A DNA stretch of 64,000 bases, taken from sequence record OR062946.1; one strand, 5' to 3'. This stretch comes from Escherichia phage 310Ecol104PP. The notes under the pieces are model-generated. The model saw only the letters and a list, made by a program, of their open reading frames with translations. It was not told the DNA's origin and ran no database searches. A program made the translations under genes and the position numbers. Positions 4,548-34,147 of the stretch are shown here, piece by piece (within the stretch, counting starts at the first letter, position 1; each line of letters opens with the position of its first letter).

Positions 4548-6316
4548 AAAAGCCACAAGAAATGCAAACGATGCGTAGAAAAGTTATTTCAGATAATAAA
4601 CCAACACAGGAAGCGGCTAAATCCGCTTCTAACACTTTATCTGGACTTAACGATATATCTACGAAATTGGATGATGCTCAAGCTGCTTCTGAGTTAATTG
4701 CTCAAACTGTCGAAGAAAAATCGAATGAAATAATTGGAGCAATTGACAACGTAGAAAGCGCAGTGAGTGATACTACTGCTGGTTCTGAGTTAATTGCTGA
4801 AACCGTTGAAATTGGCAATAATATTAATAAAGAAATCGGTGAATCACTCGGGAGCAAATTAGATAAATTAACAAGTTTACTAGAGCAAAAAATTCAGACA
4901 GCTGGAATTCAACAAACAGGAACTAGTTTAGCCACGGTTGAAAGCGCTATTCCTGTTAAAGTTGTTGAGGACGATACAGCTGAATCTGTGGGTCCTTTAT
5001 TACCGGCTCCTGAAGCAGTTAATAATGATCCTGATGCTGATTTTTTCCCTACCCCTCAGCCAGTCGAACCTAAACAAGAATCGCCAGAAGAAAAACAGAA
5101 AAAAGACGCATTTAACTTAAAATTATCTCAAGCTTTAGATAAATTAACAAAGACTGTTGATTTCGGATTTAAGAAATCTATTTCAATTACTGATAAAATA
5201 TCAAGCATGCTATTTAAGTATACCGTCAGTGCTGCTATTGAAGCTGCTAAAATGACTGCAATGATATTGGCTGTTGTTGTTGGAATAGATCTACTGATGG
5301 TTCACTTTAAATATTGGTCAGATAAATTTTCAAAAGCCTGGGATTTATATAGTACTGATTTTACTAAATTCTCTAGCGAAACCGGAACATGGGGTCCTTT
5401 ATTACAGAGCATCTTTGATTCTATTGATAAAATTAAACAACTTTGGGAAGCGGGAGATTGGGGTGGATTGACAACAGCTATCATAGAAGGACTTGGAAGT
5501 GTTCTTTTTAATTTAGGAGAGCTTATTCAATTAGGTATGGCTAAATTATCTGCAGCAATTCTTCGAGTCATTCCTGGTATGAAGGATACTGCTGATGAAG
5601 TAGAAGGAAGAGCATTGGAAAATTTCCAAAATTCTACTGGAGCATCTCTCAATAAAGAAGACCAAGAAAAAGTTGCAAATTATCAAGATAAACGAATGAA
5701 CGGAGACCTTGGTCCGATAGCAAAAGGATTAGATAAAATTGCTAATTGGAAAACTCGTGCATCTAATTGGATTCGCGGTGTTGATAATAAAGAAGCACTA
5801 ACTACCGACGAAGAACGTGCAGCAGAAGAAGAAAAATTAAAGCAGCTTTCACCTGAAGAAAGAAAAAATGCTTTAATGAAGGCTAATGAAGCACGTGCCG
5901 CGATGATTCGTTTTGAAAAATATGCTGATTCAGCTGATATGAGTAAAGACTCAACGGTTAAATCTGTTGAATCTGCCTATGAAGACCTTAAAAAACGGAT
6001 GGATGACCCGGATTTAAACAATTCACCGGCAGTTAAAAAAGAACTTGCTGCTAGATTTTCTAAAATTGATGCTACTTATCAAGAGCTCAAGAAAAATCAG
6101 CCTAATGCCAAACCTGAAACTTCTGCTAAATCGCCAGAAGCGAAACAGGTCCAGGTTATTGAAAAGAACAAAGCACAGCAAGCTCCTGTTCAGCAAGCAT
6201 CTCCTTCAATCAATAATACTAATAATGTTGTTAAGAAAAATACTGTCGTTCATAATATGACACCTGTAACAAGCACAACTGCTCCTGGTGTATTTGATGC
6301 GACTGGAGTTAATTAA
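4544..6316 (+). CDS. 29: baseplate hub / tail-length determining protein gp29
   Basis: 590-aa ORF with internal repeats (AASELIAQTVE.. / AGSELIAETVE..); ATGA overlap with gene 28. Confidence 0.9.
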   Translation: MKKPQEMQTMRRKVISDNKPTQEAAKSASNTLSGLNDISTKLDDAQAASELIAQTVEEKSNEIIGAIDNVESAVSDTTAGSELIAETVEIGNNINKEIGESLGSKLDKLTSLLEQKIQTAGIQQTGTSLATVESAIPVKVVEDDTAESVGPLLPAPEAVNNDPDADFFPTPQPVEPKQESPEEKQKKDAFNLKLSQALDKLTKTVDFGFKKSISITDKISSMLFKYTVSAAIEAAKMTAMILAVVVGIDLLMVHFKYWSDKFSKAWDLYSTDFTKFSSETGTWGPLLQSIFDSIDKIKQLWEAGDWGGLTTAIIEGLGSVLFNLGELIQLGMAKLSAAILRVIPGMKDTADEVEGRALENFQNSTGASLNKEDQEKVANYQDKRMNGDLGPIAKGLDKIANWKTRASNWIRGVDNKEALTTDEERAAEEEKLKQLSPEERKNALMKANEARAAMIRFEKYADSADMSKDSTVKSVESAYEDLKKRMDDPDLNNSPAVKKELAARFSKIDATYQELKKNQPNAKPETSAKSPEAKQVQVIEKNKAQQAPVQQASPSINNTNNVVKKNTVVHNMTPVTSTTAPGVFDATGVN

Positions 6317-26904: not shown

Positions 26905-29169
26905 TCATAATTTACAGGATGAACAATCTTCAGCTTTTGGAGTTTCTATTTCATAATCATCAGTACCAGAACCATCGCGGGTATTATGATAATAGAAATT
27001 TTTTCCGCCAAAATACCAAAAATACAAAAGGTCATCAATCATTATTGACATTGGAACCTTTCCTTTTGGAAAAATCTGCGGGTCATAATATGTATTCGCT
27101 GAAGCTGATTGACATACCCATTTCAGCATAATAGCTACCTGCGTAAGATAAGGTTTATTACCTTTCTTAGCTAATTTCCACGTATAATCATAGAGGTCTA
27201 TGTTATGCTCAATATTGGGCACGACTTGATTAAAGGAACCCTCTTTTGATTCTTTAACAGAGACTGGTCCACGTGGAGGCTCGATACCGTTTGTACTGTT
27301 AGAAACTTGGGAAGATGACTCACATGGCATAAGTGCTGATAATGTGCTATTACGGATGCCAAAGAGCTTAAGGTCTTCCCGCAGCGACGACCAGTCACAA
27401 ACGTATTTTGGAGCTGCGATTTGGTCAATCTTTTTATTGTACCAGTCGATAGGTAATTCGCCTCGAGACCAACGAGTGTCTGAATAATATTCGCAAGGTC
27501 CTTTTTCTTTGGCGAGCTTAATGGATGCTTTAATGAGTCCATACTGTAATCTCTCAAATAGTTCATGTGTTAAATCGTTAGCATCTTCATAAGAAGCAAA
27601 GTTACTTGCCAGCCAAGCTGCATAGTTGGTAACACCTACGCCAAGGTTTCGACGCTTTTTAGCTTTTTCTGCTTCAGGAACTGGATATCCTTGGTAATCC
27701 AAAAGATTATCAAGAGCACGAACTTGAACTTCTGCCAATTCATTAATTTTATCTTGGTCTTGCCAGTCAAAATTATCTAGTACGAATGCAGAGAGAGTAC
27801 ACAATCCAATTTCAGCATCAGGACTATTCACATCATTTGTTGGAATAGCAATTTCACAGCACAAGTTGCTCTGACGAATAGGTGCCTTTTCACGAATAAA
27901 CGGAGTATAGTTATTCGTATTATCAATGAATTGTACATAAATCCTTGCTGTTCCTGAGCGTTCAGTCATGAGCAATTCAAATAGTTCACGGGCTTTAATA
28001 CGCTTTTTACGAATATTAGGGTCTTTTTCTGCTGCTTCGTATAATTCACGGAAACGGTCTTGGTCTTTAAAATAAGAATAATAAAGCTCGCCACCCATTT
28101 CATGCGGACTGAACAAAGTAATGTAATCGTTCTTTCCGAATCGTTCCATCATCAAATCATTCAGCTGAACACCATAATCCATATGACGAATGCGGTTTTC
28201 TTCTACGCCTTTGTTATTTTTCAAAACGAGAAGATTTTCAACTTCCAAATGCCAAATAGGATAATAAGCAGTAGCTGCGCCGCCACGAATTCCACCCTGT
28301 GAGCATGATTTAACTGCAGTCTGAAAATGTTTCCAAAAAGGAATAACACCAGTATGACGTACTTCACCCATGCCAATCTTAGAACCTTCGGCACGAATCA
28401 TACCAACGTTAATACCAATTCCAGCGCGTTTAGAGATATATTCAACAATTGAAGCAGAAGCCTTATTGATAGACTTCAGTGAATCACCTGCCTCAATAAC
28501 AACACATGAACTAAACTGTCGAGTCGGAGTACGACAACCAGCCATAATAGGAGTTGGTAATGAAATCTGTCGAGTAGATACTGCTTCATAAAAACGAATA
28601 ACATGTTTTAATCTATCAACAGGTTCATCTTGATGCAGTGCCATTCCAATAGCCATAAATGCAAACTGTGGAGTTTCATAAATTTGACCAGTGGTTTTAT
28701 CTTTAACTAAATATTTTTCTTTTAATTGCATCGCCCCGGAATAAGTAAATTCCATATCCCGTTCGTGCTTAATTTTTGATTCTAAAAATGTAATTTCTTC
28801 TGCTGAATATTTTGACAATAATTCAGGGTCGTATTTACCTGCATTTACACAGTAAGAAATATGGTCAATAAATGAACGTGGTTCATACTGCCCATAAACA
28901 TGCTTACGAAGAGCAAACATTAAACAGCGTGCAGCTACATATTGATAATCAGGTTCTTCAACCGAAATAGAATTCGCAGCAGCCTTAATGACAATAGTCT
29001 GAATATCATCAGTTGTCATTCCATCACGGAGATAAGATTTAATATTTTCATATAATTCATAAGGATCTACTGATGTTCCCTCAGCTGCCCAAGATAAAAC
29101 TTTAATAATTTTTTGTGGGTCAAAGCTCTGAGAAACACCACTACTTTTGATAACATTAATTAATTGCAT
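26905..29169 (-). CDS. nrdA: ribonucleotide reductase large subunit
   Basis: 754-aa ORF with C-terminal Cys pair (DCSSCKL); length equals T4 NrdA. Confidence 0.95.
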   Translation of the reverse strand: MQLINVIKSSGVSQSFDPQKIIKVLSWAAEGTSVDPYELYENIKSYLRDGMTTDDIQTIVIKAAANSISVEEPDYQYVAARCLMFALRKHVYGQYEPRSFIDHISYCVNAGKYDPELLSKYSAEEITFLESKIKHERDMEFTYSGAMQLKEKYLVKDKTTGQIYETPQFAFMAIGMALHQDEPVDRLKHVIRFYEAVSTRQISLPTPIMAGCRTPTRQFSSCVVIEAGDSLKSINKASASIVEYISKRAGIGINVGMIRAEGSKIGMGEVRHTGVIPFWKHFQTAVKSCSQGGIRGGAATAYYPIWHLEVENLLVLKNNKGVEENRIRHMDYGVQLNDLMMERFGKNDYITLFSPHEMGGELYYSYFKDQDRFRELYEAAEKDPNIRKKRIKARELFELLMTERSGTARIYVQFIDNTNNYTPFIREKAPIRQSNLCCEIAIPTNDVNSPDAEIGLCTLSAFVLDNFDWQDQDKINELAEVQVRALDNLLDYQGYPVPEAEKAKKRRNLGVGVTNYAAWLASNFASYEDANDLTHELFERLQYGLIKASIKLAKEKGPCEYYSDTRWSRGELPIDWYNKKIDQIAAPKYVCDWSSLREDLKLFGIRNSTLSALMPCESSSQVSNSTNGIEPPRGPVSVKESKEGSFNQVVPNIEHNIDLYDYTWKLAKKGNKPYLTQVAIMLKWVCQSASANTYYDPQIFPKGKVPMSIMIDDLLYFWYFGGKNFYYHNTRDGSGTDDYEIETPKAEDCSSCKL

Positions 29170-29486: not shown

Positions 29487-29703
29487 ATTGTTTTTCCGTT
29501 AAAACAGTAATATCGTAGTAACAGTCAGAAGAAGTTTTAACTGTGGAAATTTTATTATCAAAATACTCACGAGTCATTTTATGAGTATAATATTTTTTAC
29601 CATAAATGATAATAGGCTGTTCTGGTCCTGGAACTTCTAACTCGCTTGGGTTAGGAAGTGTAAAAAGAACAACGCCAGAAGTATCTTTAAATCGTAAAAT
29701 CAT
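29440..29703 (-). CDS. hypothetical 87-aa protein (nrdA.2 position)
   Basis: ORF with ATGA overlap to the td stop. Confidence 0.45.
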
Positions 29704-30560
29704 ATTGCCATTTTCCCTTTAATTGCTGGATGCGATTCATAATTTTCAAGGATAAAATCTTTCGGTTTCATGTATTCAGTTAACCAGTAAAGCTGTGTTT
29801 CGGTGTCACAATTTCCAAACTCTATAGGCCAATCAATTTTAAGTTCACACAGTTCTTTAGGCTCACGACGTAAAATTTCTTTACATTGCTCAGTATGATT
29901 CATATAGATGTGAGTATTACCACCAGAAAATATCAAATCTCCTGGGATAAGATTACACATCTTAGCCACAATATGCGCCAAGGCAGCGTACGAGGCAATG
30001 TTGAATGGCAAGCCCAAGAAAACATCTACACTTCTTTGGTACCATTGTAAATCAAGATAACCATTACGCACATTAAACTGATAGAACATATGACAGGGCG
30101 GTAATGCCATTTGATTGATTTCAGCTGGATTCCATGCTGAAACGATTTGACGTCGATCAGTTGGTAATTTTTTAATACGATCAATAGTTTCAACTAATTG
30201 ATCCACACCACCGAAATCACGCCATTGTTTACCGTATATAGGACCAAGTTCACCACTATGATATCCTAGGTCTTTAGCCTGGTTTTCATAGTTATCGTCC
30301 CAAATAGTTTTACCTTGAATAAGACTACCATGTGTGCGAAGACGTAAATCATTAACATTGGTAGAACCGGAAATAAACCATAGAAGCTCAGCAATGCATG
30401 CATTCCAGGCGAACTTCTTAGTTGTTACTGCAGGAAAACCTTTAGTTAAATCCCAGCGTAATTTAGTACCGAACAAAGCAATTGTTCCTGTGCCTGTTCG
30501 GTCATCGGTTTCATAGCCATTTTCAAAAATGTCTTTAATTAAATCTTGGTATTGTTTCAT
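29700..30560 (-). CDS. td: thymidylate synthase, uninterrupted
   Basis: 286-aa continuous ORF with active-site PPCHMFYQF; no group I intron. Confidence 0.95.
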
Positions 30561-30604
30561 TTAGTACCTTATATAAATTATAATACATTTTATGAAGCTA
30601 ATAA

Positions 30605-30964
30605 TCAATACGGTTTAGCATCAAATTTTCTTTCGATTTCAGGAGTGAAATATAATTCTTTACCACGTTTGGAAAAACGACCAATAATATGATAATTATT
30701 CTCATCAAACGTGATATTACCAATATCCATAGCTTTCAACCAAATATCGATATTTCTATCTAGTTTTATATCAAAATTCCAATACGGAGAACTATTACCA
30801 AAAATACTACAAGCGGATTCAGTGAAACAACTGCTATAAATCTTGTCTTTAGGAACTACTAATTGATAGACGCCTTTAATAAACTGAGGACCCTGCCATT
30901 TTGGTTGTTTCGCGTCTTTTTCTAATAGAATAGGGTAATAATTAAAATTCATATTTTCCGCCAC
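30605..30964 (-). CDS. hypothetical 119-aa protein inserted between frd and td
   Basis: ORF 8 nt downstream of the frd stop and 44 nt upstream of the td ATG. Confidence 0.5.
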   Translation of the reverse strand: MAENMNFNYYPILLEKDAKQPKWQGPQFIKGVYQLVVPKDKIYSSCFTESACSIFGNSSPYWNFDIKLDRNIDIWLKAMDIGNITFDENNYHIIGRFSKRGKELYFTPEIERKFDAKPY

Positions 30965-30972
30965 GTGTTATT

Positions 30973-31802
<830 letters not shown>

Positions 31803-31813
31803 ATTATCTCCTA

Positions 31814-32146
31814 TTAAAAAGGATCAGGAACATATCCACTAGCTTTAATCATTTTAACTAATGTTACCATTCCTTTGTTAACTGCTTGTGAGATTTCATC
31901 AAAAACTTCATCATTAAAAAGTTCTAGCACACCCTTCTGAACTTTTAATTTACAGCCAACAATTTCGTCATCGCCTATAGTAAATTCATTACCGCCAATT
32001 CCACCGAAAAACTTAATTACCCCAGTTAACTGTTTTCCACGAGAATATGGGTCATGTGATAAAGTAATATGAGTCACCCCAGGTACAGTTTTAAATTGAC
32101 AGCGAATGTTTACTTGAGAAATTCCAGTTACATGAATGTCAGACAT
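31814..32146 (-). CDS. hypothetical 110-aa protein (frd.2 position)
   Basis: ORF in same-strand train. Confidence 0.5.
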   Translation of the reverse strand: MSDIHVTGISQVNIRCQFKTVPGVTHITLSHDPYSRGKQLTGVIKFFGGIGGNEFTIGDDEIVGCKLKVQKGVLELFNDEVFDEISQAVNKGMVTLVKMIKASGYVPDPF

Positions 32147-32156
32147 AATATTTTCC

Positions 32157-32399
32157 TCAAACAGACTTTTTCACAGTTTTCCAATCAGCTTTAAACTGAT
32201 CAACATCAGAATGGTAAATCCAGAATCCTGCGCTTTCTCCATCTTCATAAAGAGGACATCCATCGCATTCATCTTCCCATCCCATATCACGCAAAAGACG
32301 TTCAGCTTTTTCAACAAGTTCAGAATCTTTACCGATGATATTAAAATACCATTTACCCCTAACTTCTGAATCTTTAATGCTCTGACGTTGTAATCTCAT
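32157..32399 (-). CDS. hypothetical 80-aa protein (frd.3 position)
   Basis: ORF with AGGAG Shine-Dalgarno, downstream of an early-type promoter. Confidence 0.5.
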   Translation of the reverse strand: MRLQRQSIKDSEVRGKWYFNIIGKDSELVEKAERLLRDMGWEDECDGCPLYEDGESAGFWIYHSDVDQFKADWKTVKKSV

Positions 32400-32424
32400 T
32401 TTATTCTCCTTAGTTGATAGGGTA

Positions 32425-32454
32425 ATAGTATCACACTACTACCCTACTGTAAAC
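32425..32454 (-). promoter_or_regulatory. early-type promoter upstream of frd.3
   Basis: GTTTAC, 18 nt, TACTAT on the minus strand. Confidence 0.45.
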
Positions 32455-32816
32455 TACTTTTTGAAAGTTTTTCGCAAAAGTTCAATGATTTCATCTACAT
32501 TGTTTTCGTCAACAATGCAGTGAATTTTTGTTACGCCAGAAACCTTGTCTTCTATTTCATCTTCAGAAGTCGGTTCTTTATACTCACGAAAACAATGAAA
32601 TTCATCTTCGCAGACGTTGAAGTAAAAATGCTTTCCATTGGCGCATTCTACGTGTTTTACTACTTTAAATCCATCAGCAAAGAAAACTTCTTTAACTTCA
32701 AACCATCCGCCATTTTCTTGAATAGCTTTAACTATTAATGAATTAGAACGCGGGCGATAATTAATAAATGTATCAATAAGTCTTGGAACAAGTTCGTACT
32801 TTTTATCAATATACAT
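32454..32816 (-). CDS. hypothetical 120-aa Cys/His-containing protein
   Basis: ORF between the 83-aa ORF and frd.3. Confidence 0.5.
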   Translation of the reverse strand: MYIDKKYELVPRLIDTFINYRPRSNSLIVKAIQENGGWFEVKEVFFADGFKVVKHVECANGKHFYFNVCEDEFHCFREYKEPTSEDEIEDKVSGVTKIHCIVDENNVDEIIELLRKTFKK

Positions 32817-33238: not shown

Positions 33239-34147
33239 TTAAAGGTCATTCAAAAGGTCATCCAGGTCCGTGTCATCAGCACTAGATGAACTGCCAGAGC
33301 TTGAGCTCATAAAATCATCTTCAGTTTTTGTATTGAAGTCATCAACATTGAATGCATCCAAATCATCAGCAACTTTATCAGCTTTCTTAGCAGCAGTTGC
33401 TGCGGCACCACCCATAGCAGCAGTTCCCATAACTTGACTGAACTTAGTGCTCAGTTCTTCAAACGATTTGAATTTATCTTTAGAAGTCATTTCAGAAAGG
33501 TCAACCATTTGTTCGAACAGTTCTTTCTGGAAAGATTCATCATCAATGTTTGGAATCGCAGATTGATTCAGGAATTTAGATTCGTCGTAGTTACTAAAAC
33601 CAGAAACTTGTTTAACTTTCAGTACAAAATTAGCACCTTCCCACGGACAAGTTACATCAACCGGAGTTTCACCCATTTCAACATCAACTGCAATCATTGC
33701 ATTGATTTTATCCCAGATTTTCTTACCGAAACGGTATTTAAATACTTTACCTTCATTTTCTGGAGCAGCTGGGTCTTTTACTACAAGAATGTTAGCCCAG
33801 TAAGAAGTTTTACGTTTAACAAGACCATATTCTTTATTGTCAGTGTTGTACAAATCATTTTTACTGATGTACTGACATACTGGACAAGAATCGTAATCAC
33901 CGTGGGTAGATGAACAGTTTTCAATATACCATTTACCATTTTTCTTGAAACCGTGATTTACAAGAATTGCGAATGGTGCTTGTTCATCATTTTTAGACGG
34001 AAGAAAACGAATTACTGCTTGACCGTTACCCGCATTGTCGAGTTTCAGTTTCCACTCGCCTTTATCTTCAGAAGAAAAACCACCTTTATTTCCAGCCAGT
34101 TTAGCCATTTGTGCAGCGAGTTCAGCAGTAGATTTACGTTTAAACAT
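33239..34147 (-). CDS. 32: single-stranded DNA-binding protein gp32
   Basis: 302-aa ORF with zinc-site [11 protein letters not shown] and acidic Ser/Asp-rich C-terminal tail. Confidence 0.95.

Follow-up and report, generated by a model that had tools for sequence, protein, structure and literature searches.

In bacteriophage T4, the genes for dihydrofolate reductase (frd) and thymidylate synthase (td) overlap. The 64,000-nucleotide (nt) stretch of Escherichia phage 310Ecol104PP analysed here (OR062946.1; hereafter the window) belongs to a Tequatrovirus and carries an additional open reading frame (ORF), here called gene A, between the same two genes. This raises the question of whether the ORF is a gene at all, how it came to lie there, and what its product may do. 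Judging from its substitution pattern, gene A is a real protein-coding gene under strong purifying selection, and the frd–td junction of Tequatrovirus is a three-state accessory slot, holding A alone (the commonest state), a different gene, C, alone, or nothing, as in T4 (the rarest). The frd–td stretch of the window is 99.0% identical to that of Shigella phage KRT47, and its elements are the following.

30973–31557, minus strand: frd, dihydrofolate reductase, 194 amino acids (aa), with the C-terminus ...ESVYK followed by TGA
30605–30952, minus strand: gene A, 115 aa from ATG (or 30605–30964, 119 aa from GTG)
30561–30604, minus strand: 44-nt spacer before td, with an AAGG Shine-Dalgarno sequence at 30570–30567, six bases from the td ATG
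29700–30560, minus strand: td, thymidylate synthase, 286 aa, a single uninterrupted reading frame

Gene A and the states of the frd–td junction

The product of frd matched Pfam DHFR_1 (E 1e-18) and phrog_316 (E 7e-58), and its translation could be aligned to the Frd proteins of T2, T4, and T6; the ORF is open up to 31584, with the T4-homologous start MIELVF at 31557. The td product matched Pfam Thymidylat_synt over its full length (1–266 of 266, E 4e-95) and, because this match lies in one continuous frame, td is without an intron; the td genes of T4 and T6 carry the I-TevI intron. An earlier note on this DNA had placed a 119-aa ORF 8 nt past the frd stop codon and 44 nt before td, and both distances proved exact (from the stop codon at 30973–30975 to the GTG at 30964, and 30561–30604, respectively). 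The true start of gene A is probably not this GTG but the ATG at 30952, which leaves a 20-nt gap after frd, because the latter is the start annotated in T2 and T6 and the exact 115-aa protein is recorded on 341 contigs. The T4 overlap stated in the note was found in NC_000866, where frd occupies 145109–145690 and td ends at 145112, resulting in a 4-nt ATGA overlap.

Over 345 coding positions, the gene A copies of the window, T2, and T6 differed by 10–13 synonymous changes and by no nonsynonymous change. Against two metagenomic homologues of 63–66% identity, the ratio of nonsynonymous to synonymous substitution rates (dN/dS) was 0.10–0.13. We regard gene A as real because nonsynonymous changes are absent among the three phages and because dN/dS stays at about 0.1 at deep divergence; the pattern is that of coding sequence. 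A chance ORF, or an untranslated spacer, would agree with the weak Shine-Dalgarno sequence and with the lack of a functional annotation, and with nothing else. Weighed against these substitution data, the conservation of the family across genera, and a confident fold prediction, such an explanation has a negligible probability.

The same note had described the sequence as unrecognised, which was not borne out. The protein matched phrog_1928 (E 9.5e-36), with residues 8–115 of the 119-aa form on profile positions 2–125 of 126, and belongs to PHROG 1928, a small family that is restricted to T4-like phages and annotated "function unknown"; as the family has no assigned function, membership gives no mechanism. 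A word-indexed protein search gave 3 and then 18 relatives, and HMMER, run exhaustively against 1.84 billion representative proteins, returned 22 clusters at 50% identity, 20 of them with members of 95–116 aa. Two longer matches were not taken as relatives: one, P0036, is a fragment of a reverse transcriptase, and the other, P0038, matches weakly and repeatedly and falls into no Pfam family. No matches were obtained in Pfam, NCBIfam, or PADLOC (the last at E up to 1) for A, for its paralogue B described below, or for a distant A, and Pfam over 38 family members gave scattered chance matches only, none of them to a nuclease. The PDB, searched by sequence and by profile with gene A, gave nothing below E 0.4, and the family profile detected no paralogue of gene A among all six-frame ORFs of the window. 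In the literature, neither the PHROG number nor any of the locus tags from T2, T6, and BASEL was found in a paper, and general searches returned nothing on the ORF. Rfam, run on 29500–32500, gave one sub-threshold match only, to the Drosophila long non-coding RNA Yar_1 at 30850–30921 on the plus strand, antisense to gene A; with 25 bits against a gathering threshold of 50 (E 0.018), it was attributed to chance in AT-rich DNA.

Gene A is also not peculiar to the window. In the junction alignment of T4, T2, and T6 that the earlier note had proposed, the ORF was absent from T4 and present in T2 (EcT2_00240, BBF63391) and T6 (EcT6_00235, BBF63653), where an identical 115-aa protein, annotated as hypothetical, occupies the same slot with the same flanking spacers. 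The window gene differs from these copies solely by synonymous changes, and orthologues occur also in RB6, RB32, PST, KRT47, and others. A tblastn search with the ORF returned 554 phage records, 362 of them at ≥90% identity (T2, T6, RB6, RB32, and PST included), and the remaining 192, at <60% identity, from phages of Klebsiella, Edwardsiella, Kosakonia, Erwinia, and Citrobacter. A 64-nt probe over the T4 junction recovered 32 records, many of which are T4 stocks or mutants; the others are RB55, RB59, vB_EcoM_112, G28, HY03, SG1, and a few more. In fHoEco02 and about 135 records, the slot is filled not by A but by the 68-aa gene C (phrog_9550), which in the fHoEco02 type overlaps frd by ATGA and td by one base. 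The proposal of an accessory insertion into a conserved operon is thus upheld in that the gene is absent from T4 and that a sequence scar, described below, suggests splicing; what did not hold is that the ORF is an unusual extra, given T2, T6, and some 362 records. Since gene A already stands in the databases for T2, T6, and hundreds of other T-even genomes, annotated as hypothetical, it makes a finding of limited weight. What changes is the perspective centred on T4, whose ATGA overlap is a minority state.

Gene C itself was located at 1548–1754 of the fHoEco02 locus (L012), 2148–2354 of locus L010, and 4670–4879 of locus L014. It is 79–81% identical between Tequatrovirus and Klebsiella or metagenomic T4-like phages, and homologues at 40–44% are found in genomes of Phapecoctavirus. 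As the latter are not T4-like, the gene appears to have moved between phage groups.

Outside the window, 24 loci (8 hand-fetched and 16 from IMG/VR, for which the related-locus search used a 9-sequence family alignment) were tested by tblastn with the window Frd, A, and Td plus B and C. Overall, A comes immediately downstream of frd in all 24, and td lies beyond it in the 23 that reach that far. Relatives of A occupy the slot in at least five other Tevenvirinae genera, and in the annotated genomes the homologue is always between frd and td (Jiaodavirus Mineola, Kanagawavirus PEi26, Kosakonia 305, Roskildevirus FBB1, Moonvirus CF1, and Klebsiella kv_tblp8). Besides frd-A-td, the loci showed the orders frd-A-B-td and frd-A-B-C-td, B and C often accompanying A; FBB1 and L025, both Erwinia phage loci, have a B-like gene (B') ahead of A, in the order frd-B'-A-td. 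B is paralogous to A, having in common with it the motifs Q-K-K-W and G-R-F-x-K-R-G and matching phrog_1928 (E 8e-33 and 2e-37); A and its tandem paralogue both cover the profile nearly end to end, and C is unrelated to either.

This constancy of place would be expected if A were an accessory subunit or regulator of the deoxynucleotide-synthesis machinery, a protein that binds dihydrofolate reductase, thymidylate synthase, or the mRNA of either and whose synthesis is matched to theirs by translational coupling. In every examined locus spanning both genes A lies between them, stop and start codons overlap between the slot genes in most of the loci checked, and the divergence of A in other genera (30–46%) is of the same order as that of Frd (44–49%). 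However, T4, the phage in which the enzyme complex was defined, is without such a gene, the coupling is broken in Tequatrovirus by the 20-nt and 44-nt spacers, and the presence of gene C, which uses the same slot, in the unrelated Phapecoctavirus implies that the slot may just tolerate cargo. We therefore hold a role of this kind to be improbable. T4-type genomes are known for moron-like cargo genes and plastic accessory slots, and like such cargo A is a small dispensable ORF in a variable slot of a conserved early/middle cluster, exchanged by recombination. It differs from them in that the promoter-like element lies downstream of A, where it would serve td, and in that, from genus to genus, the family keeps to a single slot.

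A repeat at the junction and the origin of gene A

Aligned to T4, the window, T2, and T6 showed a clean 416-nt indel at the frd–td junction. It is bordered by a 15-nt direct repeat, 13 of 15 positions being identical, whose spacing of 416 nt is exactly the size of the indel; the repeat copies and the leader of gene A are as follows.

30965–30979, minus strand: left repeat copy, TAAATGAAATAACAC, the frd stop and then a decayed td start (ATG AAA TAA CAC)
30549–30563, minus strand: right repeat copy, TAAATGAAACAATAC, holding the functional td start
30953–30964, minus strand: leader, GTGGCGGAAAAT, the 12 nt before the ATG at 30952, with a weak GGA Shine-Dalgarno sequence

Directly at the frd stop, ATGAAATAACAC repeats the td start ATGAAACAATAC in decayed form, so that the left copy now reads Met-Lys-stop. 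At the junctions of T4 and Mosigvirus, TAAATGAAACAATAC is present once, and in Mosigvirus PhAPEC2 the junction is likewise empty, with the same sequence as in T4 (TATAAATGAAACAATACC). Matches of at least 13 in 15 were found in 7.8e-6 of random pairs at 300–600 nt spacing in the window.

The leader may point to a source outside the genus. As GTGGCGGAAAAT(A), 12–13 nt long, it resembles the 3' tail of frd (GGTGAAAAGCG / GGTGAAAAACG) that directly precedes A in phages of the frd-A-B-C type, where the alignment gives GGTGAAAAGCGA in locus L014 and GGTGAAAAACG in locus L015. In these two loci Frd ends in GEKR* or later, and in every Tequatrovirus and Mosigvirus allele read it ends in VYK*. The A protein of the window is 63–66% identical to the L014 and L015 copies, while Frd is at a flat 44–49% against all outgroups; L014 is an uncultured relative of the Kanagawavirus-like Enterobacter phages, with about 71% DNA identity to CIP9.

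These features (the 15-nt scar, the leader resembling a donor frd tail, the VYK* ends, and the closeness of A to L014 and L015) are the reasons for favouring capture, and the scar suggests that gene A was spliced into an overlapping junction of the T4 type, with insertion as the probable direction of the event. In such a course, a donor of the frd-A-B-C type would have supplied an A segment together with a few bases of its frd tail, and illegitimate recombination into the empty junction would have duplicated about 15 nt, so that a second td start, now decayed, was left next to the stop codon of frd. The insertion would have uncoupled td from frd, and td would have gained a Shine-Dalgarno sequence of its own and the promoter-like spacer. 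The A allele may then have spread among the Tequatroviruses by homologous recombination in the conserved flanks formed by the 3' part of frd and the 5' part of td; identity to T2 and T6 is 93–100% from about 31190 to 30440, and the frd and td segments beyond are divergent. The two repeat copies are partly constrained by coding, so that the independent evidence amounts to about 6 of 8 plus 3 of 3 matches, for which a hand estimate gives a chance of about 1e-3 to 1e-2.

The opposite polarity, in which the ancestor of Tequatrovirus already had gene A and an exact deletion between the two 15-nt copies removed it from T4, has several points in its favour. Recombination between the repeats would restore the T4 junction exactly, the T4-type junction is rare (the 32 records), and the same slot is occupied in Jiaodavirus, Kanagawavirus, Moonvirus, Roskildevirus, and unclassified T4-like phages. 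What speaks for insertion instead is the left repeat, non-coding filler that mimics the td start, which is expected after insertion into an overlapped junction and not under ancestry. In addition, the junction of Mosigvirus, the sister genus, is empty in the same way, the Tequatrovirus alleles keep the short VYK* tail of frd, unlike the array-bearing L014 and L015, and A is disproportionately close to the lineage of these two. We consider ancestry followed by loss rather unlikely, though it deserves to be kept in mind.

The scar also contains a three-codon mini-ORF, ATG AAA TAA, at 30968–30976 on the minus strand, overlapping the frd stop. It could serve termination–reinitiation ahead of gene A, which itself has a weak Shine-Dalgarno sequence.

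Predicted fold and possible functions of the product

The AlphaFold model of the gene A product (predicted local distance difference test score, pLDDT, 92) is a small beta-rich domain with one helix. It has no significant solved relative, and its weak matches were mostly to OB folds. Across 38 family members, Q16, W19, G27, G91, K95, and G97 are invariant and Y29, F93, and F102 nearly so, and no Asp, Glu, or His is invariant. Of the two conserved motifs, Q-x-K-W falls in the first inter-strand loop and G-R-F-x-K-x-G in the last hairpin. In OB folds, these two elements (L12 and L45) make up the usual ligand face. The window protein is mildly basic, with an isoelectric point of 8.5 (about 6.8–9.5 in most members), and is 17% aromatic.

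Because the family has no invariant Asp, Glu, or His and no conserved catalytic residues, binding appears a better description than catalysis, and our best guess from the model is a non-catalytic, OB-like binding protein. The closest known proteins would be the OB-fold binders of single-stranded DNA or RNA (S1/CSD, RPA/SSB, Teb1/Cdc13, and HIN), a likeness given by weak structural matches. Single-stranded nucleic acid would be the likeliest ligand, although we find even this doubtful, and a protein partner would be the main alternative. The product would be made together with the nucleotide-synthesis enzymes, presumably before replication, and would be dispensable. An accessory gene inserted into an empty T4-type junction, spread by recombination, and encoding such a binder is the combined reading that we prefer, with somewhat better than even confidence. 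Across Tevenvirinae, the slot is taken up by a phage-only family whose fold is predicted with confidence and which is without a solved relative.

One orthologue, bas35_0069 of the BASEL phage WilhelmHis, is labelled "putative homing endonuclease" in GenBank, and a free-standing enzyme of this kind could account for the indel, which separates conserved genes and has closely similar sequence on either side. The T-even seg, mob, and I-TevI genes are likewise present or absent between conserved genes, with flanks nearly identical among carriers, and a G-[IV]-Y tripeptide is found at residues 27–29 of the A protein. Near-identical flanks among carriers, however, fit ordinary homologous recombination equally well as co-conversion. 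A GIY-YIG identity was rejected, since most members lack the second motif (IYS in the window), even though G27 and Y29 of the first are conserved; hhalign against I-TevI aligned 11 columns with a probability of 0.4%. Homing endonucleases of any class were rejected as well: the protein is a single 115-aa domain with no HNH, LAGLIDADG, PD-(D/E)xK, or GIY-YIG match by sequence or fold, and its predicted fold has one helix. None of the 38 members has a Pfam nuclease domain or, as said, an invariant Asp, Glu, or His, and 115 aa are too short for a nuclease plus a DNA-binding domain. In contrast to seg, mob, and I-TevI, A lacks nuclease domain, motif set, and fold, is about half the size, and forms a translationally coupled array inside the operon in other genera. 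A homing endonuclease is hence very improbable, and the label, being unsupported, should not be propagated among the orthologues.

A role in counter-defence, implied by the earlier note, or in host takeover is another candidate. Here A and B would be small inhibitors that bind a host protein, for instance an immune sensor or effector, and would be retained or lost depending on the hosts encountered, which would account for the three-state polymorphism and the tandem duplication. Presence/absence polymorphism within one genus, tandem paralogues, small size with a non-catalytic pattern of conservation, restriction of the family to phages, and dispensability (T4 and Mosigvirus are without the gene) would all suit such inhibitors. 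No PADLOC match was obtained, which is weak evidence because PADLOC models defence and not anti-defence, and nothing on gene A was found in the literature searched. Also against the idea are the zero nonsynonymous changes within Tequatrovirus and the fixed place beside frd and td across genera, which look more like a housekeeping accessory than an arms race. With these points on both sides, we judge counter-defence unlikely.

A and B may be an unrecognised OB-like partner of the thymidylate-synthesis module, which either tethers or regulates dihydrofolate reductase and thymidylate synthase or shields the supply of deoxythymidine monophosphate from host defence, T4 having lost or never gained the gene. 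We think this quite unlikely; if true, the lack of such a partner in T4 would explain why the family was never studied. Because the gene is present in T2 and T6 and absent from T4, a clean knock-out/knock-in comparison would be easy, and anyone compiling the accessory genes of T-even phages could include it at little cost.

The spacer before td and neighbouring variability

The earlier note had also pointed to promoter-like sequence in the spacer before td, and AGCTTCA (30599–30593), followed after 10 nt by TATAAT (30582–30577), is present on the minus strand as described. In T4, the consensus of MotA middle promoters is (a/t)(a/t)(a/t)TGCTT(t/c)A, about 12 ± 1 bp upstream of TAnnnT. The MotA-box-like ATTAGCTTCA at 30602–30593 has one core mismatch to it (A for T), with TATAAT 10 nt on or TAATTT 12 nt on, and a sigma-70-like pair, TTGATT-17-TATTAT, lies in the same region (30608–30580). 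Both T2 and T6 keep the spacer, apart from a single 1-nt indel in the former. In the window, a relaxed MotA-type pattern had 32 matches, compared with 18 ± 4 after shuffling, and sigma-70-like hexamer pairs in the 3-kb region showed no excess (15 vs 13.2 ± 4.0 in shuffles). As such matches are common in AT-rich DNA, the td promoter in the 44-nt spacer is putative, though plausible.

Further along the minus strand, the order of genes is as follows.

33239–34147, minus strand: gene 32, followed by the frd.3, frd.2, and frd.1 homologues, two small ORFs, and frd (30973–31557)
26905–29169, minus strand: nrdA, preceded, from frd on, by gene A, td (29700–30560), and two small ORFs

The two small ORFs between frd.1 (32157–32399) and frd, both on the minus strand, encode 110 aa (31814–32146, phrog_3566) and 81 aa (31557–31802, phrog_3183). 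In T4, there is only a 71-nt gap between frd.1 and frd, with no ORFs. T2 and WilhelmHis keep the 81-aa gene and have a gap in place of the 110-aa gene, and T6 has a divergent 119-aa version. The frd.1–frd interval is thus a second variable accessory slot, just upstream.

Some entries for the same region in related genomes carry misleading labels. In T6 (AP018814; L001 2905–4781), the intronic I-TevI gene of td carries the label "RNA polymerase sigma factor for late transcription", and each of the two td exons stands as a coding sequence of its own, the second as a hypothetical protein. In T2 (AP018813; L003 1–801), nrdA is labelled "single stranded DNA-binding protein".

Both genes flanking gene A show abrupt changes of identity. 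The body of td (about 29720–30430) is 43–85% identical to T2 and T6, yet 97–100% identical to WilhelmHis, and the frd segment at about 31200–31390 is 55–83% identical to T2 and T6. Because of these swings, td and frd are to be read as mosaic genes, in which divergent alleles meet at recombination boundaries within the coding sequence.
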